Source of the DNA: Bacteroidales bacterium
GTDB taxonomy: Bacteria; Bacteroidota; Bacteroidia; Bacteroidales; CAIWKO01
NCBI GenBank assembly: GCA_035389045.1
Contig: DAOORA010000043.1
Coordinates: 1 to 37,172, forward strand
Direction of reading: 5' to 3'
DNA length: 37,172 nt
Part shown: positions 1 to 37,172 of the stretch, piece after piece
Position numbering within the stretch: position 1 is the first letter of the stretch
How the letters are laid out: each line of letters opens with the position of its first letter
The notes under the pieces: model-generated
What the model was told of the DNA's origin: nothing
The model's input: the letters and a program-made list of their open reading frames with translations, nothing else
Databases searched by the model: none
Position numbers and translations under genes: made by a program

Positions 1-98
1 AAATTTGAAACGAATGGAAAATTAATTAATTTTATGGACGGGTTGACACGGCAGGACGGATAAAAACCCGCCCGCTGCAAAGCCCCGGAACGTTATGC
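1..98 (+). repeat. attC-like site, right arm only (left arm outside window)
   Basis: Ends ...GCAAAGCCCCGGAAC-GTTATGC (core at 92-98), 20 nt before the ATG at 119. GTTATGCAAC (92-101) is the exact reverse complement of GTTGCATAAC (1018-1027) after the gene. Confidence 0.65.
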
Positions 99-118
99 AA
101 CATTAAAAAAATAAAACC

Positions 119-976
119 ATGAAGACAAAATTTTACTTTTTCGGACTGGTGTTTTTCCTAATATCGATCATTTGTAAATCACAGGGCTTTTCATGCGACA
201 GTGCAACATTAATTTGTACTGGACAGCCTGTTAATATAAGTGCTGGTTCTCTTGTTGACAGTTCAGAAATAGGCCCAAATTATGGTTGTCTGTATGGACC
301 CCAACCTAATTTTTCATGGTTTTATATGAAGATTCTTAATCCAGGAAACCTTTCTCTTGAAATAACATGCACGCCATCGTATAATCTTAATTTTGTTTGC
401 TGGGGACCTTTTACCTCACTTACAACACCATGTGTTGCACAACTAACAGCAGGTACTTATACGCCCACTCATGGCTCTCCGGGTCCAAGTGTATGGTATC
501 CAACACTGAACATGATCGATTGCAGTAGTAGTGCTTCATTTGGTGAATTTTGTTATATCCCAAATGGAATAACAGGTCAATATTATATTATGATGATATC
601 AAGAACCACCCCTGATGTCTGTACAGTTACTCTTACCCAAAACAATGGTTTTGGAACTCTGGATTGCACTCCTGTGACTATTGATGAAGAAAATATTAGT
701 CAAATAAATAAAAATGTTTCATTAAAAAATATTCCTAATCCTTTTAACGATAAGACAAGTTTCACTTTTTCCGTACCTTATAATACTAATGCAAAACTTG
801 ACATATTTGATATTAATGGCAGACACATTAAAAGAATATTTGACAATGAAGTTCATAAAGACAAGGAATATATTATTGAATTTTCTTCAGAAAACTGTGC
901 AAATGGGTTTTATATTTATCGTCTGAAAACTAATGATAATACATATTTTAGAAAAGCAATAGTCGTCAAGAATTAA
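119..976 (+). CDS. T9SS type A sorting domain protein with Cys-rich N-terminal domain (putative cassette 1)
   Basis: Signal peptide; Cys-rich GPNYGCL..P.FSWFY..CWGPF domain; C-terminal IPNPFN..LDIFDINGR..NGFYIYRL..KAIVVK typical of the Por secretion tail. Confidence 0.85.
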   Translation: MKTKFYFFGLVFFLISIICKSQGFSCDSATLICTGQPVNISAGSLVDSSEIGPNYGCLYGPQPNFSWFYMKILNPGNLSLEITCTPSYNLNFVCWGPFTSLTTPCVAQLTAGTYTPTHGSPGPSVWYPTLNMIDCSSSASFGEFCYIPNGITGQYYIMMISRTTPDVCTVTLTQNNGFGTLDCTPVTIDEENISQINKNVSLKNIPNPFNDKTSFTFSVPYNTNAKLDIFDINGRHIKRIFDNEVHKDKEYIIEFSSENCANGFYIYRLKTNDNTYFRKAIVVKN

Positions 977-1020
977 TTTCACTCTGACACGACATGATTA
1001 AAAAAAACAAAATTAACGTT

Positions 1021-1153
1021 GCATAACTTGTGTCTGCTTTCACCCCGCAGGAAAGGCAAACATGACAGTTCGGGAACATTTTGAAAACTATGAGTATTTT
1101 GACAGGAAATGTTATTAAATTGCGGGGCGAAAAGCAGCCACCGACCGTTGTCC
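1021..1153 (+). repeat. attC-like recombination site (133 bp)
   Basis: R'' GCATAAC 1021-1027; arm GTGTCTGCTTTCACCCCGCA 1030-1049 pairs imperfectly with TGCGGGGCGAAAAGCAGCCAC 1121-1141; core GTTGTCC 1147-1153. Confidence 0.75.
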
Positions 1154-1258
1154 GCAATTTGGCGACTAAGGTTTCCTATTTTCACCTTCGTACATACCTG
1201 CACTGGGCAAAGTCGAAGGGAGAAACTTTTACTCTCTGGAAAATCACATACCTGTTTC

Positions 1259-1289
1259 TTTGGTTCTATAAAATAAATTTGTATTTTTG
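1259..1289 (+). promoter_or_regulatory. Bacteroidota sigma70 promoter for the M4 peptidase
   Basis: TTTG (1259-1262)-N19-TATTTTTG (1282-1289) fits TTTG-N19-21-TAnnTTTG. The region is AT-rich, so a chance match is possible. Confidence 0.45.
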
Positions 1290-1354
1290 AAATTTCTATT
1301 GAGCTTCGAAACAGGTTAGCAAAAAGTTCCAATAATGAATACCATAAATATATA

Positions 1355-3895
1355 ATGAATAAGATAAAAAAAACAGTGTATGCATGTGTTTTAATAATAC
1401 TATTCATAGTAATTGGTCTTTTTAACTCCATGTCTCAAACTTATTCAGGCAAAGAAGCGGAAAAAATTATAGCAGGCTCAAGTTATGTGTGTATAAATAA
1501 TATTTTAAAAACTCCTGCTTATATCAGTTTTAAGAAAAACAAAGAAATACCTTTTATTGAATTTGGCAATTGGATGAGAAATAATATTGGATTATCTGAT
1601 GATTTGTCATTCAGATTAGTAAACAAAGAAACGGATAAATTCAGATATATCCATTATCGTATGCAACAGCTATATAAAGGTATTCCGGTTGAATTTTCAT
1701 ACATTATTGTTCACACTTTCGAAAATAAAATTATTTCCTTTAATGGTACTATTATTAAATCATTATCAGTTCCGGTAAATTCTGCAATAGATATCAATGA
1801 AGCCTCTGCAATATCACTTAAATATTGTTTTGGAAATGACTATAATCAATTCAAGAACTGTTGCATTCAGGCAGTTGATTCAATTGTTATCATTCCCGAA
1901 AAACTAAATTTTAAAACGAACTCAGAACATAGTTTATCATATAAATTAGATGTTTATTCAAAATCTCCTTTAAAACGTATGTTTGTCTATATTGATGCCA
2001 TAACTGGGGAAGTACAAGGTGCCATTAACAGAATTCAAACAAATGATACGACTGGAATTGCTAATACTTTTTACAGTGGTTCACAATCCATAAAAACTAA
2101 TTTCACAGGAACTGAATTTATCCTCCGTGAATCTGGAAGAGGTAATGGAATTAATACAATGGATTACAATTTTAACCAGGGTAGTCCGATTGATTTCACC
2201 GATGATGACAATTACTGGAACAATATCAACCCACAGCACGACGAAGTAGCTACAGATGCACACTGGGCCGCAGAACAAACTTATGATTATTTTTTATCAA
2301 AATTTGCAAGAAACAGTATTGACAATAATGGATACGCAATTAATAGCTATGTACATTATGGATTAAATTACAATAATGCCTTCTGGGATGGTGAAAATGT
2401 ATTTTTTGGAGATGGGTCTGGGACAAACACAGCTTGGGTAACCGTTGATGTGTGTGCACATGAAATCACTCATGGATTAAACACCAAAACTGCTTCCCTG
2501 ATTTATACTGATGAACCAGGCGCTTTAAACGAAGGCTTCTGTGATATTTTCGGAACATGTATCGAATTTTATGCAAAGCCAGCAGCTGCAAACTGGCTGT
2601 TTGCAGATGAAATTGGCACCACGTCCAGATCACTCAGTAATCCAAAATCATTGGGTTACCCTGATACTTACCAGGGACAGTATTGGGATTATTTGAACGA
2701 AGTTCACAAAAACTCAACTGTTCTTAGTCACTGGTTTTATTTACTTTCACAAGGTGGAAGTGGTACAAATGATTTAGGAAATAATTACTCTGTGACAGGT
2801 ATTGGTATGGATAAAGCAGCTGAGATTGCATATCGCACTTTAACAATTTATCTGTTACCACTGTCAAATTATAACGATATGCGTTTTTATTCAATACTTG
2901 CTACAAGTGATCTTTTCGGAGCTTGTTCTGATGAATCACAAGCTGTAATAAATGCATGGTATGCTGTTGGAATTGATAGCGCATTTACAAATCAGGTAGA
3001 AAGTGATTTCGTATCTCCTTATACAACATCATGTCAAATCCCTGCATCTATCTCATTTATTAACCTTTCTTTAAACTCAGATTCGTGCTTATGGGACTTT
3101 GGAGACGGAACTTTTAGTAATGAAATGAATCCTGTTCATATTTATAACTCATTCGGAGATTACAATATTAAATTAATTGCATATGGTAATAATTACTGTA
3201 TAAACAATGACACGATCATAAAAAACAATAATATTCAGATATTACCATCTGCACCATGTATTGCAAGAATGCCGGAAACCGGAACCGGGGAAACCCAGAT
3301 TTCGTGTAATGGAGTACTCTTTGATAGTGGCTTAGCAGGGTATTATCAATCTGACACGCGCAGCACAATTACAATATCGCCTGTTAATGCAGCAAATGTA
3401 ACATTGACTTTTGAAGAATTTAATTTTGAAGCTGTTTATTGGGAAATATTGATGATTGCTATGAAAGACTCCTTAATAATTTTTGACGGACCAGATACGC
3501 TAAGCCCTGTTTTATCTACCTTATCAGGCAATACTATTCCTTTACCAATAGTCTCTACAGGAAATGCTATAACAATTCTTCAAGCCACAAATTCAACTGA
3601 AAACAGACCTGGTTTCAAACTCAGATGGGATTGTTCATTAAATTCCAATCTCGCAGAGTTGACCAATTCAAACTATTATTCAATATTCCCAAATCCTGCA
3701 CAGGATTATGTAATATTGTCCTTACCACTGCAATCAACCATCGAAATTTATGATGCGCAAAACAGAATGTTAAAATCTTTGCTATCATCAGAGGAAAATA
3801 TCAAATTAGATTTATCAGGTTTCCCAAAAGGATTATATTTAATAAAAATAATATCGGCGCATACCATTGTAATAAAAAAATTAATTAAATTGTAA
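1355..3895 (+). CDS. M4 (thermolysin-like) metallopeptidase with propeptide, PKD, CUB-like and T9SS type A domains (putative cassette 2)
   Basis: NNAFWDG, HEITH zinc motif, GALNEGFCD, VHKNS; PKD WDFGDG; DSG..Y CUB-like segment; IFPNPA..KGLYLIKI..KKLIKL CTD. Confidence 0.93.
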   Translation: MNKIKKTVYACVLIILFIVIGLFNSMSQTYSGKEAEKIIAGSSYVCINNILKTPAYISFKKNKEIPFIEFGNWMRNNIGLSDDLSFRLVNKETDKFRYIHYRMQQLYKGIPVEFSYIIVHTFENKIISFNGTIIKSLSVPVNSAIDINEASAISLKYCFGNDYNQFKNCCIQAVDSIVIIPEKLNFKTNSEHSLSYKLDVYSKSPLKRMFVYIDAITGEVQGAINRIQTNDTTGIANTFYSGSQSIKTNFTGTEFILRESGRGNGINTMDYNFNQGSPIDFTDDDNYWNNINPQHDEVATDAHWAAEQTYDYFLSKFARNSIDNNGYAINSYVHYGLNYNNAFWDGENVFFGDGSGTNTAWVTVDVCAHEITHGLNTKTASLIYTDEPGALNEGFCDIFGTCIEFYAKPAAANWLFADEIGTTSRSLSNPKSLGYPDTYQGQYWDYLNEVHKNSTVLSHWFYLLSQGGSGTNDLGNNYSVTGIGMDKAAEIAYRTLTIYLLPLSNYNDMRFYSILATSDLFGACSDESQAVINAWYAVGIDSAFTNQVESDFVSPYTTSCQIPASISFINLSLNSDSCLWDFGDGTFSNEMNPVHIYNSFGDYNIKLIAYGNNYCINNDTIIKNNNIQILPSAPCIARMPETGTGETQISCNGVLFDSGLAGYYQSDTRSTITISPVNAANVTLTFEEFNFEAVYWEILMIAMKDSLIIFDGPDTLSPVLSTLSGNTIPLPIVSTGNAITILQATNSTENRPGFKLRWDCSLNSNLAELTNSNYYSIFPNPAQDYVILSLPLQSTIEIYDAQNRMLKSLLSSEENIKLDLSGFPKGLYLIKIISAHTIVIKKLIKL

Positions 3896-3925
3896 AAGAT
3901 TAATACACAACGTGAATCCAGGTCT

Positions 3926-4010
3926 CTCAGCAGCTAATCAAATAAGCTGCCCTACCGGCTAAGCCGGTAAGGAAAACCTTTCACGGTTTCTCTGAGTTTA
4001 TCGAAGTGCC
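3926..4010. repeat. Cluster of hairpins ending in a REP-like motif
   Basis: GCAGCT/AGCTGC (3930-3950), TACCGGC/GCCGGTA (3953-3969) and AAACC/GGTTT (3974-3989), enclosed by CTCA/TGAG. 3990-4010 reverse-complements to GGCACTTCGATAAACTCAGAG, similar to 33383-33403. Confidence 0.5.
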
Positions 4011-4179
4011 AATGTATGCCGATGTGCATCGCTGTCCAAAAAAATTATGTATTTTTACATGACAGGTAAAAATACTACGTCATATAATATTACAACGTTT
4101 CAGACGTTTTTTTTTGTACCCTGCTTCAAAAAAAATCGGGTATAAAATTTGATATAAAAAACGCCAAAAATTCTGAGTT

Positions 4180-5628
4180 ATGAAAAAAACAGTTATAACA
4201 ATTGCTATTGCAGTATTATCAAGCCTTGCAACCATTTTTGCCTTCAGGTTTGCCGACAAAAAGAATTATGATATTCAGACGTATTATCAAAACCAGGCTC
4301 CCGTTCAAACTGTCAGTATGTCAGGCAGGGTCCCCACCACCGGCCCTGATTTTGTATTAGCCGCTGAAAAAACGATTCATGCTGTTGTTCATATACAGAC
4401 ACAGTATAATTACAAAAATTCCTATTACGACCAGTTTTTCGGGTATGACCCGTTTTTCAATTTCTTCAATCAGCGGAGATACAACAACCAGCCGATAATG
4501 ACCTCAGGGTCAGGTGTTCTGATCGCCGAGAACGGCTATATTGTCACAAACAATCATGTGGTGAGCGATGCCAGTAAAATCGAAGTGACACTCAACGACA
4601 AGAGAACTTTTGAGGCCAAACTCATCGGCTCAGATGCCGGTACAGACCTTGCACTGATCAAAATAGAAGGTACTGACCTGCCTTACATTACTTATGGTAA
4701 TTCGGATAATGTAAAAATCGGCGAATGGGTGCTGGCCGTAGGGAACCCTTTCAACCTTGCATCTACAGTAACTGCAGGCATCGTCAGTGCAAAAGCCAGG
4801 GATATAAACATCTGGGGAAATAATTCCACCGTGGAGTCATTCATTCAGACCGATGCGGCCATCAATCCGGGCAACAGCGGCGGGGCGCTGGTGGATGTTA
4901 ACGGGCAACTGATCGGTATCAATGCCGCTATTGCAAGCAACACCGGATCGTACACCGGCTACTCCTTTGCCATACCATCGAACATCGTAAAAAAAGTGAT
5001 TTCGGATATTCTGGAATACGGTGAAGTCCAGCGTGCTTTTATGGGCATCTCCTTCACCGATATCGACAGCAAACTGGCCACTGCACAGAAACTCAAAAAT
5101 CTTAACGGGGTTTATGTAGAATCGGTCAACAGGGGCGGCGCCGCCGAAAAAGCCGGCATACTGAAAGGGGATATTATCACTAAGATCAACGACAATAATG
5201 TAAACAGTTCGTCTGAGCTGAAAGAAATGATCGTCCGCCAGCGTCCGGGCGATAAGATCAATGTCTCAGTGATGAGGGGCGACACGGAAAAACAGTTCAC
5301 GCTGACCTTCGAAAACAGCGAAGGCGGAACGGCCATACTCACCGACGAAAACAGCAGCGGCACAGTGCTTGGAGCAACCCTGCAGGAAATCAGCGATAAA
5401 GAAAAAATAAATCTCGGCATCAGAAACGGAGTAAAAATCATTAAGCTGGAAAGAGGCAAATTATCAGGAGCAGGAATAAAAGAAGGCCTGATCATTACCC
5501 GTATCGACAACCAGCAGGTAAAAACCGCAAACGATGTGGTAAGCCTATTGAGCAACAAGAGAGGCACCGTGCTGATCGAAGGCGTTTACACCAATGGCAT
5601 GCAGGCCTATTTTTCGTTCGGGCTGTAA
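4180..5628 (+). CDS. degP: Do/HtrA family serine endopeptidase with two PDZ domains
   Basis: TNNHVV, DLALIK, QTDAAINPGNSGG catalytic triad motifs; two PDZ-like domains. DegP vs DegQ not resolvable by eye. Confidence 0.92.
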   Translation: MKKTVITIAIAVLSSLATIFAFRFADKKNYDIQTYYQNQAPVQTVSMSGRVPTTGPDFVLAAEKTIHAVVHIQTQYNYKNSYYDQFFGYDPFFNFFNQRRYNNQPIMTSGSGVLIAENGYIVTNNHVVSDASKIEVTLNDKRTFEAKLIGSDAGTDLALIKIEGTDLPYITYGNSDNVKIGEWVLAVGNPFNLASTVTAGIVSAKARDINIWGNNSTVESFIQTDAAINPGNSGGALVDVNGQLIGINAAIASNTGSYTGYSFAIPSNIVKKVISDILEYGEVQRAFMGISFTDIDSKLATAQKLKNLNGVYVESVNRGGAAEKAGILKGDIITKINDNNVNSSSELKEMIVRQRPGDKINVSVMRGDTEKQFTLTFENSEGGTAILTDENSSGTVLGATLQEISDKEKINLGIRNGVKIIKLERGKLSGAGIKEGLIITRIDNQQVKTANDVVSLLSNKRGTVLIEGVYTNGMQAYFSFGL

Positions 5629-12693: not shown

Positions 12694-14908
12694 TTAATAA
12701 AATACTGCCCTCATTGAAGCATACCAAAAATAATCATTTGCTAATCCTGATGACATATATCCATTTAAGTAATAAGTATATGTCCCTGCGGTTACTGAAA
12801 ATCTTCTGGTAACGGTAAAAGTATTGTTAGCTGAACTTGTATATGTTGGTATTACCGATGGTATGTCATATACTACATAATTATATGCCGTTCCACCATC
12901 TGTAGGACTAGTGCCAATTCCAAGGTAAAGAATATCTGCTGTTCCTAGTGTATGGTCAAACCTGACCCAAACATTTGCCAGTACTTCTATGGTTCCGGAA
13001 TAGGGAGCCGTTATAGTGACGGCTGCACCGGAGTAATTCGACCAGGATGAAGTTAAAGGTATTGTCGATCCGGTCTCAGCTGTGACAATTAATCCGTTAT
13101 TACTCACCCATGTTGGTGCTCCTGTGCCGTTTGATTTCAGTATTTGCCCGGAATTGCCTGCCGCGGTTGTTGCCATTGCAGTGGGTGATGCTGCATAAAC
13201 CACACCACCCTGGGTCAGGCTGCTGTTTTGACCTGTACCACCATTAGATACGGCTACAGGTATAATAAGTGAAAACGTTGTACCGGTAAGAGAAATACCC
13301 GTGCCATTATTATACATTATGTTGTCATCCGGTTCACATATAACACTTCCATCAGAATTAATCGCTCTGATTGACGAACCTGCCGGGCAAGGTGAGCCTA
13401 CCCTTCGCTGCAACTCATTTGTGTTGACATCAAGATACCCTATTGAACCATTAACTATCGTTGATGAATTGACAGCATTACCAGCCATTTTAATCAGTGT
13501 TACCGCACCATCGTACAGTTTGGGTGTTGTGATAGCTCCATCCACCACTGTCAGAGCTGTTACGTTGGTGACAAGCGAACCATCCCCTGAAAAATTTGTA
13601 GCTTTAACGGTGCCATCCACATCAAGTTTCTGGACCGGGGATTCAGTTCCTATCCCTACATTACCGCCAGCGATTGTCATTCTTTCTGCACCAGACTGAT
13701 AAAAGCCAATATCGTCATCACCATCGTTATTATTTCCGATAAGCAATCTTGTGGCTTCCCCTGATTTTACATAGTATTTAATGAAAGCCTCGTCTGATAC
13801 ACCTCCGCCGGGATTTGAAGGAAAACAAATTCCTGTTGATGCAGAATTCCCGATGGCCGGCATTATAGCGCCGCCAGCAACCTGGAGTTTTGCTAAAGGA
13901 GTTATTGTACCTATCCCCACGTTGCCGCCGTTGAAAAGGCCGTTTCCGCTGATTCTGAACCCCGCTGCCTGATCGGTTGCGATCTGGTGCTGAATATAGT
14001 TGACGCTGCCGGAAAAAGGCGCATAAGGCAGATTATCATAATGATACCCGTCAAGCAAATCGGAATTAAGGCCGGAAACAAGAGTCGTTGAACTTACCGC
14101 AAGGGGTGCCGTTCCTGTTGCAACGGTTGATATAAGCTGGTTATCGGTTTGTATTGCGCCGCCTGCAACATCGAGCTTTTTTACGGGTGCCGCAGTGCCT
14201 ATACCTACATTGCCGTTATTGGAATTATATATATTATTTCCGCTTATTGCCCATAATGTATCATGGTAAGAGGCAAGATTTACAAAACCGCCGTTGCTCA
14301 GATAAACGGTATCGTTGCTGATACTGAGCACCTGCAATTCATTGGTTGCGGAGCCGTCCGCTTCGGTGGTCAGGTATCCGGCATCAGCATGGTTGCCCCA
14401 GCCATACGCAGTATTCCAGTTAATGATGTTAGTACCGGTAATTCCGCCTGCAGGTGAGACGCCAAAAACAGGATCCGTCTCGGGCGGAAGACCGCAGACG
14501 CTATCGGCTGTCCTGCTATGCAGCGCATAGGGCACGCTTAACAACTGCGTTGTCCCCATGGTTATATATGAAGTCCCGCCGTTCTGGTCAAACTCAACTT
14601 TTATATAATAAGGGCCGTTTGCCCAGGTTATACCGGCCATGGTTCCATATAACGGAACACCGGCACCGATTTTAAGCACCGATACCCCATACGAATTGGT
14701 GGTATCCTTTTGTGTTTCAACGTAAACAGAAGCTCCATAGACAGAACCCTGAAGTACACTTATACGGAATGAAACCGCCTGATTCGCAATAATGTTCCCG
14801 GCATTATCTCTGACCACGGCCTGGTAATTAAACTTCTCAGGTGCCTGGGCAAACACCAAAGCAGTTAAAAAAAAAAAATGCTGATAAAAATGCAAATACT
14901 CTTTTCAT
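12694..14908 (-). CDS. Tail-fibre-like surface protein, frameshifted in its signal peptide as sequenced
   Basis: N-terminal QAPEKFNYQAVVRD...LLSVPYAL domain, three GNVGIGT..P..KL.V.G repeats, DGA(I/V)T..K repeats, beta-rich C-terminal head. ATG at 14908 is out of frame by one base in the A12 tract. Confidence 0.8.
14867..14878. repeat. A12 homopolymer (T12 on coding strand)
   Basis: Counted directly. T11 restores MKRVFAFLSAFFFLTALVFA-QAPEKF. Confidence 0.9.
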
Positions 14909-14914
14909 AACTTA

Positions 14915-15400
14915 TTAAATTTTAATGATTTAGAACTTCAAAATCTTTTTGCTATCTGTAATCTTTGTAAAATATCCCGATGGTTTAAGTTGTCTTGTGT
15001 CAAACATATTCTCAACACCGGAATTTCTTTAATAAACCATAAGTTTGCTGCTGAAGTCATACAACAAAAAATACAGCTTCTCCATTTCCGAATTTTCGGC
15101 ATCTATTATAAGGAAATCACTGGCCGGTTTGGGATAAACCCTAAATCTCAGATTTATGTCCCTGGCTCCTTCCATTGCTGTCATGAAGGATGTTTCGTAT
15201 GATTGCTTAACATGCTGAACAGCTATGCTATCGGTGCATGTAATAGCAGAGAATACAACCTGCTTACCGGTGAAGCCAGCCCGCCCTCCTGTGCCAGCGG
15301 TATGACCGGCTGTGCTCACGGTACAATTTTTTGCATAAAATTCTACGACCCTACTTATGAATTCAGAATATATAAATACAATCGCATCTCTTATGTCCAT
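14915..15400 (-). pseudogene. Decayed small T9SS type A sorting domain protein
   Basis: ORF 15029-15400 reads ..AGHTAGTGGRAGFTGKQVVFS..QHVKQSYETS..RVYPKPASDFL..LYDFSSKL. After a stop and frameshift, LKPSGYFTKITDSKKILKF*IIKI* ends 6 nt before the fibre ATG. Confidence 0.7.
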
Positions 15401-15692
15401 ACAACAGCCGTTAAAGCAAAGTTAATTAAATACATTACCCTAAAAATACAAAATATTTTAACAGATCGCAATAAAAAATTTAATAATTTTAACCAGATCC
15501 GGCATCTGAGTCTTTTATCCGTTAGCCTGCATTTAACTCTAAATAATTTTTCTATTGCGGATTTGGGATAGGATGACAACTAATAACTGTTGTCAAACAC
15601 ACATAATTGTGCTTTAACCTGTAATGAATAATTGGCTGAACTGCTGTTCGGGAGCGCGTTTGGCGTAAAGATCAAACCCGCTGATTTATAAA

Positions 15693-27526: not shown

Positions 27527-27685
27527 AGAAACTGTTTTGATTTTATGTTACATAAGATTTATGATGGATTTTTTAGCGAAACGAGGCAGATTTTGCAGAC
27601 ATAATTTATCCTATGTCGAAAAATCTAACGATTTGCAGCAAAAAGACGCATAAAGATATGAAAAGATAAAATCAAAACAATTTCT
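27527..27685. mobile_element. MITE-like palindromic element (159 bp)
   Basis: 20-bp terminal inverted repeats match 19/20 (AGAAAYTGTTTTGATTTTAT); imperfect pairing continues to central GACATA/TATGTC; second copy at 37118. Confidence 0.8.
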
Positions 27686-27711
27686 AAGTTTGCAAACTCC
27701 TATTGAATAAC

Positions 27712-31115: not shown

Positions 31116-31160
31116 TATGACTGATTTTTGAAAAAAATACAACATATTCCTTTAAATTTT

Positions 31161-32189
31161 ATGAAAATAAAATCTCAAAAAGAAAATTCCGGAAGGTATG
31201 AGTATCATCGTTATGATATAAACATTATCAGTACTCTGAAGAAAATGGAAAAAATGATTGAAACCAATAGCCAGAATTTAAAAACAAATATTGCTGATGC
31301 GTGTGAATTTATAAACCACATGTGGTTCATGGCCGAAACTTATTATAATTCGTTACCGGCGAATTCTGTGGAGAAAAATGAAAGCTTTGAGGAGCATAAA
31401 TTATCCAATCTCCTGATAATCCCGTCAGATCATCCATCATTTCAGACAGGTCTGGCTCTTGAATTAAACACAAGGGAAATATACGAATTAAGAGCATTTT
31501 TAAATTACCATCAAAAGAATTTTAAAGGATTTGGAGATGTTTTACCTGAACATTTCTTAGGATTACTTGAATATCTAATTGTACCGCATCTTAATGCCTG
31601 GAGCCCATTTAAAAAAGGCATGATCGAGGCTTGCATCATGGACTGGCTGGAAGCAAAAAAGAGCACGCGCAGGAATACGGTAAAATCAATTAAAGTCAGC
31701 AATACATTAAATTCACTCACCGACATTATTGATAAGAAAAACATTTCAGACATACAATTCAAGGAGAATGTGTTGAATGAATTATCCAGAATAAAAACTT
31801 TGGTCGATTTCCCTGGCATTAATATTAAGAAAAGCACCAAGAGAAATAAAACGGAAACCACCGTAAAAAACCATATTGATTACAGTGCTTTGTTTAAATC
31901 GGATGCCTTATTCACTAAGGCAATGCTGCTACTAGCAGAAAAAAAATTAATAGATGGTATCAGTTATAAATGGCTTGGGAATAAAAAGACAAAATCATTT
32001 TTAGCAATGATTATAAAGACTTTTCAGAGCAGGGGATATTATAAGGAAGGAGTTTCTTTAAAAAATCCGCTCATCAAGGAAATTGTCAAAGATTTTTTTA
32101 TGTTTGATGTAAAGATGGATACAATAAAACATACAAAAATTGATTCAAGTTCTGTAAAATTTATACCTTTCTGTACGGATAATAAATAA
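31161..32189 (+). CDS. Hypothetical island protein
   Basis: Long AT-rich ORF with first ATG at 31161; no motif recognised. Confidence 0.7.
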   Translation: MKIKSQKENSGRYEYHRYDINIISTLKKMEKMIETNSQNLKTNIADACEFINHMWFMAETYYNSLPANSVEKNESFEEHKLSNLLIIPSDHPSFQTGLALELNTREIYELRAFLNYHQKNFKGFGDVLPEHFLGLLEYLIVPHLNAWSPFKKGMIEACIMDWLEAKKSTRRNTVKSIKVSNTLNSLTDIIDKKNISDIQFKENVLNELSRIKTLVDFPGINIKKSTKRNKTETTVKNHIDYSALFKSDALFTKAMLLLAEKKLIDGISYKWLGNKKTKSFLAMIIKTFQSRGYYKEGVSLKNPLIKEIVKDFFMFDVKMDTIKHTKIDSSSVKFIPFCTDNK

Positions 32190-32203
32190 TTGACCTACAT
32201 CAA

Positions 32204-32230
32204 AATACACTAATACACTTTGGTGTATTA
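32204..32230. promoter_or_regulatory. Operator-like direct plus inverted repeat upstream of the excisionase-like gene
   Basis: AATACACT x2 (32204-32219) and TAATACAC-TTTG-GTGTATTA (32211-32230). Confidence 0.45.
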
Positions 32231-32317
32231 TAAACTGGATATATTAGGAATATTCAGGAAAATTATTACTTTCTTCGTAGTTCCAAATATGAATCAATTT
32301 CTAAACAAGGAGGAACT

Positions 32318-32671
32318 ATGAATATTATATCGTATAATGACTTGCCGGAAGCGGTTTCCAAATTAATAGGGATGGTGGAAACAATGCTTCAAATTCTGCA
32401 AAACCATCCGGAAAACGGGAAAGACCCTACAGCAGATCAATGGATGACACTAAAAACCTTAATTGCGTATCTTCCCGATAATCCTACCGAAGGTAGTATC
32501 TATAAAAAAGTGTTCCGGAAGGAAATCCCCTATCACAAGCCAGCAGGACGCCTTTTATTCCTGAAAAGTGAAATTGACCAGTACCTGATGTCTGGCAGCA
32601 CAAAAACTCCCGAACAGATTTCATCGGAAGCTGATAAACTGTTATCAGGAATGAAACGCAAAAAAAAATAA
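32318..32671 (+). CDS. Excisionase-like helix-turn-helix protein (HTH_17 type)
   Basis: SYNDLPEAV N-terminus; SIYKKV..KEIPYHK..GRLLFLKSEIDQYL. Confidence 0.85.
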   Translation: MNIISYNDLPEAVSKLIGMVETMLQILQNHPENGKDPTADQWMTLKTLIAYLPDNPTEGSIYKKVFRKEIPYHKPAGRLLFLKSEIDQYLMSGSTKTPEQISSEADKLLSGMKRKKK

Positions 32672-32784
32672 AAAATAAGCTCACAATAGTTCTGTTCATT
32701 AGTAAAACAGCATGATCCAATATATCAAAAAAAACCTTGATTATTATCAATTATCTATAATTATAAACTAAAAAAATTAAAACC

Positions 32785-33195
32785 ATGATTGAACTTTATC
32801 CCCCGGACCGGCAAATGGTCCTGCAACAGAAAACGACGACCATAAATTTAAGAATCTCACCGCTGATTAAAACTAAGCTCGTCGAACAAGCCTCGTTTAC
32901 AGGCATGACACTTAGCGAAATGGTTGAAACCGCCTGTGTGGATTTTCTTAAATCTGATGAAGAAAAGAGAAAATGCCATATTGAAAATGAGAATTACAAG
33001 AAAAAACTTGAGACTGCTCAGCGCATGCTTGATTTATATACAGGTAACTCAAGGATGAAAACCTTATTTGAAAAACTCAGGCACAAACATATCGAATATA
33101 CCAGTTATAACAATGTGAGGAAAACGATATTTATAAATTCACCGGATGATGTTTACACCATGATGTTAGAAATAATGGAGGTTAAAGAAATATGA
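32785..33195 (+). CDS. Hypothetical protein with ribbon-helix-helix-like N-terminus and coiled coil
   Basis: TINLRISPLIKTKL..QA...GMTLSEMV pattern. Confidence 0.7.
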   Translation: MIELYPPDRQMVLQQKTTTINLRISPLIKTKLVEQASFTGMTLSEMVETACVDFLKSDEEKRKCHIENENYKKKLETAQRMLDLYTGNSRMKTLFEKLRHKHIEYTSYNNVRKTIFINSPDDVYTMMLEIMEVKEI

Positions 33196-33338
33196 ATATG
33201 GAAATGTATGCTGTTTGCACCCCGGAGGTAATTCCGGTTAAAGGGTTTCCTTATAAAATAGTTTTTGTAGGGCTAGGGCTTACCCTTGCATTGTTTATTG
33301 CTTATAAAATAGGTCAAAAAGATCGGTCTGACGATTAA
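33192..33338 (+). CDS. Small 48-aa single-TM protein (not in ORF track)
   Basis: ATGA overlap with the upstream stop; MNMEMYAVCTPEVIPVKGFPYKIVFVGLGLTLALFIAYKIGQKDRSDD. Confidence 0.55.
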   Translation: MNMEMYAVCTPEVIPVKGFPYKIVFVGLGLTLALFIAYKIGQKDRSDD

Positions 33339-33356
33339 TACAGGCATTATTTTTTT

Positions 33357-33432
33357 CGGGCACTTCGAGAGTGATATGAGCGGGCACTTCGAGAGCCTCA
33401 GTGCCCGGGAGAGCCTCAGTGCCCGGAGGAGC
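33357..33432. repeat. REP-like hairpin cluster with 18-bp tandem duplication
   Basis: CGGGCACTTCGAGAG (33357-33371); hairpin CGGGCACT-TCGAGAGCCTC-AGTGCCCG (33381-33407); GAGAGCCTCAGTGCCCGG x2 (33391-33426). Confidence 0.8.
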
Positions 33433-33476
33433 TTGCCGGTAGTATGGAGAGTTTGTATTTATGGCGATGGCAGAGG

Positions 33477-34889
33477 TCATTTTTTTAACTGTTTTTGCAG
33501 GGCTTTACCTTTTGCTGTGAGGCGGTATTTTTGCAGGCGGCTGTTGGGTTTGTCGGGAATAGTGTATTCAATAATACCACTTTCACGAAGTTTTGGTATG
33601 GCTTTTCGCAGGTTACCACTCAACTGTTTGTGACCGAGCTTAAGTGCGATTTCACCTGATGATAACGGAACCTTCAATAGTACATCAATAATCTGAATAA
33701 TCACTTGTGCTTCAACTTGTGCCTCAACTTGTGCCTCAACTTGTGCCTCAACTTGTGCCTTTACTTGTTCCTCTACTTGCTCCCCAACTTGTTCAGTGAC
33801 TTCGTCTTCTGCCAGATTCCAGGCATTAGGGAAGGTCATACGAAGGAAGTTTTCGGAGAAGTGAAAACATTTTTCGGGATAAGCCTGTAGAATACGGGGG
33901 ATGCCAGATCCAAGGTATTCTACTAATTCCAAATCTTTGAAAATGCGCATGAGTTCCTGATTGCGGGGCACGGAGAAACCCTGAAAGAACTCTTTGCGGC
34001 TTAAATCATCGGGCAAACTGCCGGCAGAGGTAATCTCAATACGGTCATCGAAAATCTCAAATTTGGGAGGCACTTCCCTTGTATAATCATTGTGCACTAT
34101 TGCATTGATGATGGCTTCGCGCAAAGCCACCGGGTTCCACACCCGGGTGTCAATACGCTCTTTAGAAGTAATGCGGCTGCGTGTTTTGTTTTCAAGCTCA
34201 ATCTTATCAAGAACCTGTTTTGTAGCTTTAATGATGGAACAATAACCGTATTCGTTATTTTCTACAAGGTTGACACGGTTAATTCCCTTGTATTTAGCTA
34301 TTTTTATTGAAATAGAATTTATATCAGAAACCAGAAAAGCCACATAGTTAAAAACCTTATTTTCGGTAAGCAATCCAAGGTTTGACGCAAACTGAGCGTT
34401 TAGTTTCCTGCCCGATGCTTCGTAATAGATTTTTAGCTGTTCGAATTTCAGGTCCTGGCGGCTTGATTTTATTTTCCCGATTGAATTGCGGGTGCGTCTT
34501 GCAAAAAGATTTTCGATCATTTTGACGGGCATGGGTTCTGCAGCAGTGCCCACGCGGATGAAACAGCCTTTTTCAGACATACCCTGTTTTTTCAGATAAT
34601 AGGGTTTTTCGGGACCGCTGGCTACAATGATCTTTAAAACATCTTTACCGTCAACTTCTTCGTCAATAATATCGAACAATCCCAGGCAGGAAGGAAGGAT
34701 GTTGTGCCTTAAACGGTCTTTAATTTTAAGCTGTACCTCATCGCTGTTATCCACACCCACACTTTTTCCATTATCATCAATACCAATATAAATCATTCCG
34801 CCTTCGCGGCTGTTCAGAAAAGCAATTACTTCTTTTTCCAGCGAATCGGTTAATTTCAATTTCAGTTCGATGCGATACGACTCTTTCAT
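33477..34889 (-). CDS. AlbA_2/Schlafen-domain protein with HATPase_c_4 and C-terminal wHTH
   Basis: ESYRIELK..VIAFLNSREGG.IYIGIDDNG; ALREAIINAIVHNDY; IFDDRIEITSAG; PRN; E.LGSGI; PDKPNSRLQKY.LT. Confidence 0.88.
   Translation of the reverse strand: MKESYRIELKLKLTDSLEKEVIAFLNSREGGMIYIGIDDNGKSVGVDNSDEVQLKIKDRLRHNILPSCLGLFDIIDEEVDGKDVLKIIVASGPEKPYYLKKQGMSEKGCFIRVGTAAEPMPVKMIENLFARRTRNSIGKIKSSRQDLKFEQLKIYYEASGRKLNAQFASNLGLLTENKVFNYVAFLVSDINSISIKIAKYKGINRVNLVENNEYGYCSIIKATKQVLDKIELENKTRSRITSKERIDTRVWNPVALREAIINAIVHNDYTREVPPKFEIFDDRIEITSAGSLPDDLSRKEFFQGFSVPRNQELMRIFKDLELVEYLGSGIPRILQAYPEKCFHFSENFLRMTFPNAWNLAEDEVTEQVGEQVEEQVKAQVEAQVEAQVEAQVEAQVIIQIIDVLLKVPLSSGEIALKLGHKQLSGNLRKAIPKLRESGIIEYTIPDKPNSRLQKYRLTAKGKALQKQLKK
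33703..33798. repeat. In-frame 12-bp VNTR, 8 units, encoding (QVEA)n-like linker
   Basis: ACTTGTGCCTCA consensus; three identical units plus five variants. Confidence 0.92.
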
Positions 34890-36976
34890 TACAAAATTGT
34901 TTTAAAGTTTTCACTTATCAGATCTGCCAGTTTTGCGGCTTCTTCATTAAGCCCTTCCAATTCAATATGAATTTCCTTAAGCCGTTCCTCGTAATCAATT
35001 CCATCATCCACAGTGGCATCCACCCCAACATACCTGCCAGGACTCAGGCTCCAGTCCTTTGCTTCGATGTCGGCCTGTGATACTAATTTGCACAGACCCT
35101 CAACATCATTGTACCTGCTTTCGGGGAAACGGCTCGTGAGCCAATGGGCCTGTTTCCAAAAATATTCTGTTTCGTGCAGCAGGCCGGGTTCTCCTTCGTT
35201 GGGATCGCCGCTGAGTTGTTGTTGCAGTTCTTTAAGCTGATCAAGCTCGTCTTTCAGATTCAGTTCTTTCCAATCTTTGTTTTTAGATAGCTGGTGTTCT
35301 TTGGCTGCCTCGGTTATTGCATCCAACAATTGCTTTATGAGTTTATCCTGAGGTTTACGGAGTGCTTTGCATTGCTGAGCAATCTGTTCCAAGTTGGGGG
35401 CAGCCACAAGGGCAGCCCGTACAAGAGTGTTTTGTTGTTCATAAATGGCTGCTGCTTCTTCCATTTTCAAAGCCAAAGCGAATGTTTCAGCTTCTTTGTT
35501 TTCTTTTATGTATTTGGCGGCAAAATCACTTAATGTTTTATGGACTTTCTGAAATTGTTTTTGCAGTGAGGTAATGGCTGCGGCAGTTTCTTTTGCTAAT
35601 CCGGCAGAGGTTTGAAGATATTCTTTTACGGTATTTTCAAACTTTTTTGTGTTGCCACGGTATAGGTTCACTATACAAATAAGGTTTTGCAACTGCTCCG
35701 GGCTAAAGTCGTTGATCTTAGAAGTTACTTTCCTGTATATCTTCCGGGCATCGAGCATCAGGACTTTGTCATTTTTTATTATGTCCTGTTCTTTTGCCCT
35801 GTCGAAAAACCAAAGGGTGCAAGGCAGGGAACGGGTGTAGAAGAAGTTGTTGCCAATGGCTACCATTACATCAACTGCGCCTGTTTTTACAAGTTTTTCG
35901 CGAATCTCTTTCTCGCTGTGTCCGGCATCGCTGGCAGAGGAAGCCATTACAAAACCTGCACGAGCTGTCGGCTTCAGGTAAGAATAAAAATATTGAATCC
36001 ACAGATAATTCGCATTGTCATTCTTTGGTAATCCAAAAGGAAGTCGCGAATCCTTCTTCACAACATCTTTTGATTTATCTACCCCATCCACATTAAAAGG
36101 CGGATTTGCCATTACAAAATCACAACTACCAACTAATTCATGTTTGTCCTCATAAAAAGTATTTCCCTCTTGTATGTTTCCTTCCAGTCCATGAACAGCC
36201 AGGTTCATTTTTGCAAGTTTTGTATTAGTTTCTGCTTTTTCCTGTCCGTAAAAAGTTACTTTCTCGGCAGGCTGCAAACCCTCACTTTCGATAAAATATC
36301 CGGTTTGTACAAACATGCCGGCACTACCGCAGGCGGGATCGAACACAATGCCATGATCGGGTTTAATGATATTAACAATCGTATTCACCAAACTGAAAGG
36401 TGTGAAGAATTCACCGCCCTCCTGGGCACCGGTCATGGCAAATTTGTTTAGAAAGTATTCATAAATCTTTCCGAAAAGATCACCTTCTGCTTTCTGCAGG
36501 ACTTCCTTATTGAAAATACGGAGCAGTTCATGTAAAAGGTCTTTACTGAAAATTGAAAAGTTCTTTGGAAGGATACCCTTCAGGTTTTCATATTCATCTT
36601 CTATGGATTTCATCGCCATATCGATAGCTCCACCTATGTATAGAGGTTCTTTTTCACCTTTTTCATTTTTAATAAAAATTCCACCCTCAGGGAAGTTTAC
36701 CAGATACTCAAAACGTGCAATCTCTGGAAGGAACAAGGCGTTTTTTTCCAGAAAATCATTTTTTGTTATTGTGCGTTTTCCGCGTTGTGGATGTATCGGT
36801 AAATCCTTTTCTACCTCAATCCTCACTTTTTCAAACCTGTTAAAGGCATGGCGTAAAAATATCAATCCCAACACGGGCATTGAATATTCCGATGCTGTTA
36901 GCTTGCTGTTGGCCCTGAGCTGGTCAGCGGCTCTCCAGAGTTCCGCTTCTAATTTCCTGAGTTGTGTGCCTTGCAT
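34889..36976 (-). CDS. hsdM: Type I restriction-modification DNA methyltransferase subunit M
   Basis: LWRAADQLRANS, GEFFTP, FDPACGSAGMF (motif I), ANPPF (motif IV), WSLSPGRYVG; long helical insertion. Confidence 0.94.
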   Translation of the reverse strand: MQGTQLRKLEAELWRAADQLRANSKLTASEYSMPVLGLIFLRHAFNRFEKVRIEVEKDLPIHPQRGKRTITKNDFLEKNALFLPEIARFEYLVNFPEGGIFIKNEKGEKEPLYIGGAIDMAMKSIEDEYENLKGILPKNFSIFSKDLLHELLRIFNKEVLQKAEGDLFGKIYEYFLNKFAMTGAQEGGEFFTPFSLVNTIVNIIKPDHGIVFDPACGSAGMFVQTGYFIESEGLQPAEKVTFYGQEKAETNTKLAKMNLAVHGLEGNIQEGNTFYEDKHELVGSCDFVMANPPFNVDGVDKSKDVVKKDSRLPFGLPKNDNANYLWIQYFYSYLKPTARAGFVMASSASDAGHSEKEIREKLVKTGAVDVMVAIGNNFFYTRSLPCTLWFFDRAKEQDIIKNDKVLMLDARKIYRKVTSKINDFSPEQLQNLICIVNLYRGNTKKFENTVKEYLQTSAGLAKETAAAITSLQKQFQKVHKTLSDFAAKYIKENKEAETFALALKMEEAAAIYEQQNTLVRAALVAAPNLEQIAQQCKALRKPQDKLIKQLLDAITEAAKEHQLSKNKDWKELNLKDELDQLKELQQQLSGDPNEGEPGLLHETEYFWKQAHWLTSRFPESRYNDVEGLCKLVSQADIEAKDWSLSPGRYVGVDATVDDGIDYEERLKEIHIELEGLNEEAAKLADLISENFKTIL

Positions 36977-37117
36977 TATTTATCAGTCCTCTTTTAAATA
37001 CTTAGTGTTTTGCATGGATATACTTCCATTTGTATCCATATTTGTTTAGTGGTAAAAATTCAATATAATATTATGTGTAAAATTATATTTTTTTATTAAC
37101 AAAATATCAATAGCCTT

Positions 37118-37172
37118 AGAAATTGTTTTGATTTTATCTTTTCATATCTTTATGCGTCTTTTTTGCTGCAAA
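37118..37172. mobile_element. Second MITE copy, opposite orientation, cut by the window end
   Basis: Reverse complement of 27632-27685 apart from one extra T. Confidence 0.85.

Follow-up and report, generated by a model that had tools for sequence, protein, structure and literature searches.

A probable gene cassette of an integron-like system in a Bacteroidales genome, with a candidate recombinase that lacks the IntI insertion

The closest published relative of the system described here is rAID-1 of gut Bacteroidales, the recombinase-associated acquired interbacterial defence clusters, in which a 5' XerD-like recombinase precedes co-directional genes of low guanine-plus-cytosine (GC) content in 226 of 423 Bacteroidales genomes, and whose intergenic repeats were called reminiscent of integrons (Ross et al., bioRxiv 10.1101/471110). 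These clusters were defined by a recombinase more than 44% identical to B. fragilis BF9343_RS08045, at least two co-directional downstream genes, and a GC content of at most 41%; the available portion of the preprint gives no crossover point, hairpin model, or cassette mobility (10.1101/471110). By standard tools, almost no integrons are reported in Bacteroidota in the accessible parts of two studies (PMC9024848, PMC11523902), and IntegronFinder 2 found few in this phylum, with not one among 540 genomes of Elizabethkingia anophelis (Neron et al. 2022, PMC9024848). Riemerella is described, in the portion of the article available, as integrating 27 bp, a gene, and 140 bp without homology, with an attC-like fold and with the enzyme and mechanism given as unknown (PMC13148043). 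Our literature search, which covered few subscription journals, returned nothing defining the crossover, hairpin, or enzyme features of the system. We analysed a 37,172-nucleotide stretch of Bacteroidales DNA (the window), which is the entire contig C43 (DAOORA010000043.1) of an assembly of 4.46 Mb in 135 contigs that is 96.3% complete, and in particular its gene at positions 119-976. Below, C-numbers are contigs of this source genome (G000), G-numbers are related genomes, and L-numbers are fetched loci or contigs.

The best explanation of bases 92-1146 is, with high probability, that they form one cassette of an integron-like gene-capture system of Bacteroidota, whose recombination activity we infer from sequence comparison. 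We are likewise rather confident that the gene at 119-976 is a real mobile cassette of this system, because the unit running from its GTT to its AAC recurs elsewhere with other neighbours. The elements are the following.

1-91, + strand: right half of an upstream type B hairpin recombination site, cut by the contig end; 96% identical over 95 nt to a full site in L010.
92-101, + strand: cassette 5' end, GTTATGCAAC; R'-like core with a putative G|TT crossover at 92/93; identity with the C29 copy begins at 91/92.
119-976, + strand: cassette gene, 285 aa; PF18962 at E 7.6e-9; second copy on C29.
1018-1027, + strand: GTTGCATAAC, closing the gene unit on its 3' side; an R''-like core, complementary to 92-101, and the point at which identity with L010 and L011 ends.
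1028-1146, + strand: type A hairpin body, with arms at 1030-1050 and 1122-1140 and an AT-rich loop, recognised by its fold and by five full-length members in the genome.
1147-1156, + strand: GTT core closing the cassette, at the same position in aligned sites.

At C29:44329-45186 the genome has a second copy of the gene. It is one of four genes that follow each other in the same orientation with hairpin sites between them, and its neighbours are a 566-aa gene and a 318-aa gene of the type IX secretion system (T9SS) kind. From GTT to AAC the two units are identical at 921 of 936 positions; identity begins exactly at the GTT, and the upstream flanks belong to unrelated hairpin families. The 14 substitutions between the copies (106-1051) all fall in the 5' third of the gene, at 236-466, and 467-1051 is identical, a pattern left by either gene conversion or assembly collapse. 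Both 5' junctions occur at equal depth (34.6 and 35) in sequencing run X1, which is probably the source sample and hence not independent; a contig of the independent run X5 holds window positions 1-212 without difference, and run X2 holds 875-1088, again without difference. Two metagenome contigs, L010 and L011, carry copies about 95% identical (890/938 and 886/936) with other neighbours and with the same 10 bases of GTTATGCAAC. Locus L008 has the same sequence as C29 and was counted as the same contig, and L009 has the three-gene order of C29 and gives no new context. Further copies were found neither in contigs of assembled genomes, beyond matches to the T9SS tail, nor in viral contigs, nor in 400 genomes of the phylum, and the window hairpin had no match in the plasmid collection. 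The proposal of the preliminary description, made from the window alone, that this gene is a mobile cassette bounded at G|TT is thus borne out by the C29, L010, and L011 copies, with neighbours that differ between copies and relatives.

The ends of the cassette are as first reported: positions 92-101 are the exact reverse complement of 1018-1027, with 14 of 15 bases matching when extended, and a GTT lies at 1147. Only 3 of the 2,286 genome open reading frames (ORFs) of at least 200 aa are bracketed by an upstream GTT-starting 10-mer and its reverse complement after the stop, and two of these are the two copies of our gene. The AAC and GTT triplets at the window site bound an imperfect palindrome, with extra unpaired bases beside the GTT. 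The bottom strand of 1018-1156 folds at -22.7 kcal/mol (z -2.64; 2 of 200 shuffles equally good) and the top strand with z -1.61 (13 of 200). This fold alone is modest support; the strong support comes from homology, not from folding. Bases 1-91, missed in the preliminary description, are the right half of a second and different hairpin site, the left half of which has no second match in the genome. An Rfam search of positions 1-4200 returned nothing relevant, and a profile search of the window proteins found no recombinase.

Further sites of this kind, anticipated from the window, do exist: the source genome has about 16 related hairpin sites, distributed over 8 contigs. The type B site is present in 13 of 23 genomes of the family (the next best match after L010 being 93% identical) and reaches about twice the single-flank depth in run X1. 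Across cassettes, the two ends of the same cassette are complementary at 4/4 positions in 41 of 61 cases versus 8 of 61 for the next cassette, a difference whose p of 6e-7 is overstated because the rows are related. In an alignment of 20 type B rows (the L010 query and 19 near-full-length sequences among 28 listed BLAST matches in other genomes), 82.7% of cells are paired, against 29-50% in slid controls, there are 13 two-sided changes (reached in 1 of 500 shuffles), and AAC pairs with GTT in 16-18 of the 20 rows. The alignment of mixed families was out of structural register and was not used for pair counts. Lowering the threshold of the hairpin scanner to its minimum gave 101 matches in the genome and 71 in a shuffled genome; at scores of at least 40 the numbers were 11 and 2.

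These sites depart from attC in defined ways. RYYYAAC fits 6 of 98 sites and GTTRRRY fits 5 of 98, and the consensus is NNNYAAC ... C|GTTR, in which Y, AAC, C, and GT reflect the search conditions of the scan itself. The R''-L'' arm has 11 extra bases in its first 20 positions over 97 sites and no conserved bulge. Instead, in 81 of 97 sites it is the opposite (3') arm that has 3-4 additional bases next to the GTT, and offsets of 3-4 dominate even when 1-7 are allowed. The aadA1 attC control shows the canonical extrahelical pattern, unlike these sites. Arm sequences are wholly different between site families, yet they are complementary over about 20 bp across a loop of 40-150 nt, and a read-out of structure is therefore favoured.

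Other arrays and insertions of the same kind were seen. Genome G018 (L084:4020-12700, L140) has 15 diverging copies (81-100%) of a 328-bp cassette, many in tandem, with no long ORF called. At C16:31300-43300 a recombinase-less array with decayed sites starts at an AT-rich promoter-like stretch and a GTT; it contains two remnants that resemble, in their motif, the 3' ends of group II introns. Insertions of one or two cassettes with T9SS genes occur at attI-like orphan sites at C1:91900-95500, C93:3470-5500, C116:4300-5600, C46:6720, and C3:75900, and the C93 leader resembles the leader behind the recombinase.

The source genome has seven PF00589 matches, of which one, C124:247-1755, is IntI-related and an intact candidate. 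Its product combines Phage_int_SAM_4 with a catalytic domain and scores just above the NF040815 cut-off. It reaches 219.7 bits against TIGR02249, in two stretches, where the cut-off is 265. At the position of the I2 insertion it has 14 residues versus 57 in VchIntIA; the insertion is therefore absent. The catalytic residues R356/K381/H445/R448/H471/Y480 are intact and invariant in seven homologues. A predicted structure (pLDDT, the predicted local distance difference test, about 80-90) shows two additional N-terminal alpha/beta domains. The HARP profile matches this N-terminus at E 1.5e-4, below its cut-off, and the fold aligns with the UvsW N-terminus (Z 7.0, root-mean-square deviation [rmsd] 2.2, 62 aligned), XPB (Z 6.7, rmsd 1.8, 56 aligned), and the HARP of SMARCAL1 (Z 4.5). 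HARP domains bind forks.

Arrays lie behind a tyrosine recombinase gene of the same orientation, and an attI-like G|TT junction marks their start. Contig C124 ends 249 nt past the recombinase at ...CACAAAC|GTTAT, the contig of a 90%-identical G002 homologue ends at the same GTT, and in L018 and L019 the sequence behind the recombinase is common up to that GTT and then diverges. The array therefore starts 3' of the recombinase gene and runs in the same direction, the attI-like entry footprint lying 3' and not 5' of the gene. Homologues of the C124 type (E<=1e-60) occur in 18 of 31 related genomes, and in relatives the same kind of sites directly follow the I2-less recombinase. In L141 (G025, 12921-15540) an array with more than 10 sites is preceded by two recombinase genes of this family in tandem.

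In the mechanism we propose, the C124 recombinase would cut at G|TT and release each cassette as a circle with its two cores paired. It would reinsert the circles at the attI-like site or at a secondary site, and would also serve, in trans, arrays without a recombinase of their own, including that of the window. Its substrate would probably be a folded single strand, and, more speculatively, the two HARP/UvsW-like domains of the structural model might replace the missing I2 by binding the fork at the hairpin base. The alternative that survives best, though we judge it unlikely, has double-stranded or cruciform targets, simple sites of the Xer/pdif kind, with the hairpin as a side effect of inverted binding boxes and no requirement for single strands to fold. 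The absence of an I2 insert would suit it, as would the best solved structural relatives of the enzyme, which are archaeal XerA, and so would the nearly perfect arms and the weak strand bias; the complementarity kept between divergent families argues the other way, as does the same asymmetry in the mini-sites of rAID-like arrays. Adopting it would change the mechanism and leave the cassette call intact.

The likeness to sedentary chromosomal integrons is extensive. A cassette consists of GTT, gene, AAC, and hairpin, its own ends are complementary, it moves as a unit bounded at G|TT with the putative crossover there, there is an attI-like entry beside the recombinase, and recombinase-less arrays occur elsewhere. 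Unlike integron integrases, however, the enzyme has no I2/intI_Cterm insert and carries extra N-terminal HARP-like domains; the recombinase is co-oriented with the array; and the sites have an asymmetric loop in place of extrahelical bases and do not follow RYYYAAC/GTTRRRY. Compared with a cluster of attC sites lacking an integrase (CALIN), contig C43 has two attC-like sites and no recombinase, but it is cut inside the first site and the sites are non-canonical. With an enzyme that lacks I2 and sites that lack the attC consensus and extrahelical bases, the system is not an integron: it works like one, fails membership on enzyme and sites, and is best filed beside rAID-1. The assignment of the window to an integron or CALIN in the preliminary description accordingly did not hold. 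That these are nonetheless divergent attC sites of a classical chromosomal integron or CALIN, whose true IntI went unassembled or was lost, seems to us improbable. The AAC/GTT triplets, imperfect palindromes of about 120 nt, and G|TT boundaries are attC-like, the assembly is incomplete and in many contigs, and true IntI does exist in the order, where 3 of 201 genomes pass the TIGR02249 cut-off (L162-L165). But none of the seven PF00589 matches is IntI, and no true IntI was found in the source genome at E<=1e-50; the two consensus motifs are rare; the extra bases lie beside the GTT and not on the R''-L'' arm, unlike in aadA1; and the same sites stand directly behind the I2-less enzyme in relatives. 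Least probable of all is homologous recombination between dispersed hairpin repeats resembling repetitive extragenic palindromes (REP) or miniature inverted-repeat transposable elements (MITE), or an assembly artefact, with no dedicated recombinase: the genome has many dispersed repeats, and the two copies agree throughout 467-1051, which the graph collapses, but the upstream flanks are unrelated, with identity starting exactly at GTT, both junctions are in unitigs and one also in an independent run, and neither cassette-specific complementary ends nor first-cassette footprints behind the recombinase would be expected.

Several observations weigh against the proposed cassette system. The recombinase and the window array are on different contigs, C124 and C43, both of them cut, and are linked by family association; the distal-end position suggested in the preliminary description is at most a possibility for C43. 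The assembly graph of run X1 collapses 106-1051 into one, so the pairing of upstream with downstream flanks could be an assembly choice. The predicted circle junction was found in none of the contigs of four runs, which were searched as contigs only, where rare circular forms are not visible. The bottom strand is the more stable in 61 of 97 sites, a weak strand bias. Cassette rows are related to each other, and the counts for own-end complementarity, site consensus, and site folds are overstated to that extent; the hairpin scanner selects complementary arms, and thus describes sites and does not prove them. Matches of the C124 N-terminal fold are all below Z 8, with eIF1-like folds tying at Z 7.3. 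The degP neighbourhood in the source assembly is not syntenic with relatives. Finally, recombinases without intI_Cterm near attC are not counted as IntI in the accessible text of Cury et al. (2016, PMC4889954).

The comparison with rAID-1 shows both shared and distinct traits. Two rAID-like recombinases, followed by immunity genes (L159, L160), are 50-51% identical to the C124 core. Their intergenic sites consist of YAAC, a stem-loop, a short unpaired run, and a triplet, with the same asymmetry as here; they are mini-hairpins of about 40 nt ending in ATT (L159:9831-17200, L160:9843-14900), whereas ours are of about 120 nt and end in GTT. Both genes at the left end of the window are below the 41% GC limit (0.336 and 0.333). 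Their products are T9SS-secreted proteins, unlike the immunity cargo of rAID-1, other cassette genes not having been scanned for immunity profiles. Co-directional genes behind the recombinase are seen in relatives, whereas C124 itself ends at the attI-like junction. The tree has long branches and does not fix the order of the IntI, rAID-like, and C124 clades.

The C124 family extends to resistance plasmids. Acinetobacter plasmids with tet(X3) carry an "xerD/tnpF" that shares 62% identity with the C124 enzyme over residues 262-500 and groups with its clade at 93/95 (a node not starred); by sequence it belongs to this recombinase family. Behind it comes an attI-like junction and then tet(X3), which is followed by an AAC core and by the left arm of a hairpin that the downstream DNA cuts off. 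In public plasmids (L125:5052-7200, L126, L136) an N-terminally truncated TnpF/"XerD" is followed by an attI-like junction and by tet(X3) or tet(X5) in the first-cassette position. A C124-type system appears to have captured the tigecycline-resistance gene tet(X3). The available parts of the tet(X) papers credit ISCR2 with its mobility and do not call it a cassette of this enzyme. A search of 400 genomes for tet(X3) returned 2 matches, too few for swap statistics. The same kind of hairpin bounds tet(X2), arr, lnu(H), blaOXA-347, estT, and their neighbours on plasmids of Empedobacter, Sphingobacterium, and Riemerella (L133, L134, L135).

A hairpin usually travels with the gene that precedes it. 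The 15 copies of the G018 cassette share a downstream body at 91-100% identity, their upstream bodies being 56-100% identical, and the tet(X2) units of three records, compared from one GTT to the next, are 100% identical. The window cassette is an exception: identity with L010 and L011 stops at the AAC (1027), beyond which these carry a type B hairpin (68/120 versus the window hairpin). The window hairpin body is identical at 110 of 119 positions to a G007 site behind another sequence, and at only 99 of 120 to the hairpin of the sister C29 copy. In our reading, at least one replacement of the hairpin behind the window cassette has taken place at the AAC core, and an element that inserts at this AAC is the most plausible agent. 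Such an element exists in G018. It is 2.4 kb long, and its five examined copies (L084, L140, L156) interrupt at least five sites at AA|C in the orientation opposite to that of the cassettes. Its two products are a tyrosine recombinase and a transposase that we read from its sequence, not from a profile search, as IS91-like. A 5.7-kb block bounded by two such elements occurs twice (96% identical overall, 100% over 2,944 bp) and puts one hairpin behind two different genes. Like the attC-targeting group IIC-attC introns and IS1111-attC elements known from the accessible text of one study (PMC9229058), it inserts into the recombination site, in its case at the AAC core, and unlike them it combines these two enzymes. 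The 2.4-kb element was not found in the source assembly. Crossover on the top strand was considered as a cause of the swap: its prediction is borne out in that the hairpin body preceding the window gene matches the one behind the L010 copy at 96% identity, but this is weak, since type B is so common among genomes and in run X1. We give about even odds to a general re-pairing of genes and hairpins at AAC, by AAC-targeting elements or by crossover on the other strand, taken jointly with the phylum-wide reading set out at the end; cassettes would thereby acquire new recombination sites along a route that can be seen in the sequences.

Downstream of the cassette lie the following features.

1211-1316, + strand: repeated upstream module with a Bacteroidota promoter-like motif; similar stretches on C16 (three), C67, and in relatives.
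1355-3895, + strand: M4 metallopeptidase gene, 846 aa, by Pfam; GC 0.333.
3905-3911, + strand: ACACAAC, fitting the GTT core at 1147 in 5 of 7 bases; by sequence reading no more than a weak R''-like remnant.
3950-3972, no strand: short palindrome, terminator-like or REP-like; similar stretch on C16.

The M4 (thermolysin-type) metallopeptidase has FTP, PKD, CUB, and T9SS (PF18962) domains. Its gene starts 199 nt after the last core, behind the repeated module, which has a putative promoter motif resembling the Bacteroidota consensus TAnnTTTG. Its GC of 0.333 compares with 0.42-0.48 for five paralogous regions, and its closest database relative is 78% identical, others among the matches listed reaching at most 48%. 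Its sequence suggests that it was probably acquired horizontally. The preliminary description had counted it in the cassette array; this finds no support, given the promoter-like module before the gene, the absence of a hairpin site after it (none in 3701-4300), and the absence of a site near the five paralogues. Such an acquired gene, equipped with its own promoter, could be a cassette that has decayed or could reside beside a secondary insertion site. Upstream of degP, neither window gene occurs in any of 12 informative relatives (14 loci were fetched, of which L101, too short, and L105, on the wrong side, were dropped); a DUF-dapF operon is found in 11 and a different 3.7-kb insert in one. 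Joining C43 to the dapF contig C101 was attempted and discarded, as there is no overlap and C101 ends in a simple repeat.

Both genes end in T9SS C-terminal domains (PF18962) and have low GC (0.336 and 0.333, versus 0.462 for degP), as described earlier; GC this low is found in 6% of 2,704 genome ORFs. The 285-aa cassette protein has, judging from its sequence, a likely N-terminal signal peptide, then a Cys-rich domain outside known families, before this tail. It matches no enzyme family in Pfam, and its Atlas matches, one of them to GBD_T9SS_assoc, were all below 0.9 and set aside; the earlier talk of secreted enzymes finds no support in this protein, for which no enzyme activity is known. 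The suggested mobile secretome library is loosely apt for the source genome, where a T9SS tail occurs on 6 of 12 distinct genes directly upstream of sites versus 257 of 2,704 ORFs (binomial 4e-4, with ascertainment bias), and not for the whole system, since outside this genome the tail is on 2 of 46 ORF-bearing cassettes. The enrichment is limited to the source genome.

Elsewhere in the window, a second low-GC patch (31128-36976) contains two genes without family matches, a MAD1-like helix-turn-helix gene, an AlbA_2/ATPase gene, and a type I methyltransferase, and is likely a defence island. A 733-aa protein (12694-14895) weakly matches the N-terminus of a Bdellovibrio mosaic adhesive trimer (39 bits, cut-off 60). 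A repeat of about 55 bp at about 27632-27688 and at 37115-37172 is found dozens of times in the genome, frequently where a contig ends.

Our analysis adds hairpin exchange exactly at AAC, an AAC-targeting IS91-like element in a relative, and tet(X3) in a first-cassette position. Whether there is a second, phylum-wide kind of integron, in which an I2-less, HARP-assisted recombinase captures and shuffles hairpin-bounded cassettes including rAID-1, T9SS, and tet(X) cargo, is in our estimate evenly balanced, and, weighed together with it, so is the extension to homology-independent gene uptake in Riemerella, for which it would account. A cassette system that works without the IntI insertion would provide a mechanism for rAID-1 arrays and for the assembly of Flavobacteriales resistance clusters, and an origin for tet(X3). 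That one gene is joined to different hairpins at a fixed base is relevant to how cassettes form, named an open question in the available part of one article (PMC8618304). The window provides a small and clean test substrate, with one cassette in two native contexts, one intact recombinase, and an attI-like site, from an environmental organism. The accessible portion of one study treats the IntI insertion as a membership test (PMC4889954); a working cassette system without that insertion would, if true, widen the definition of the integron.

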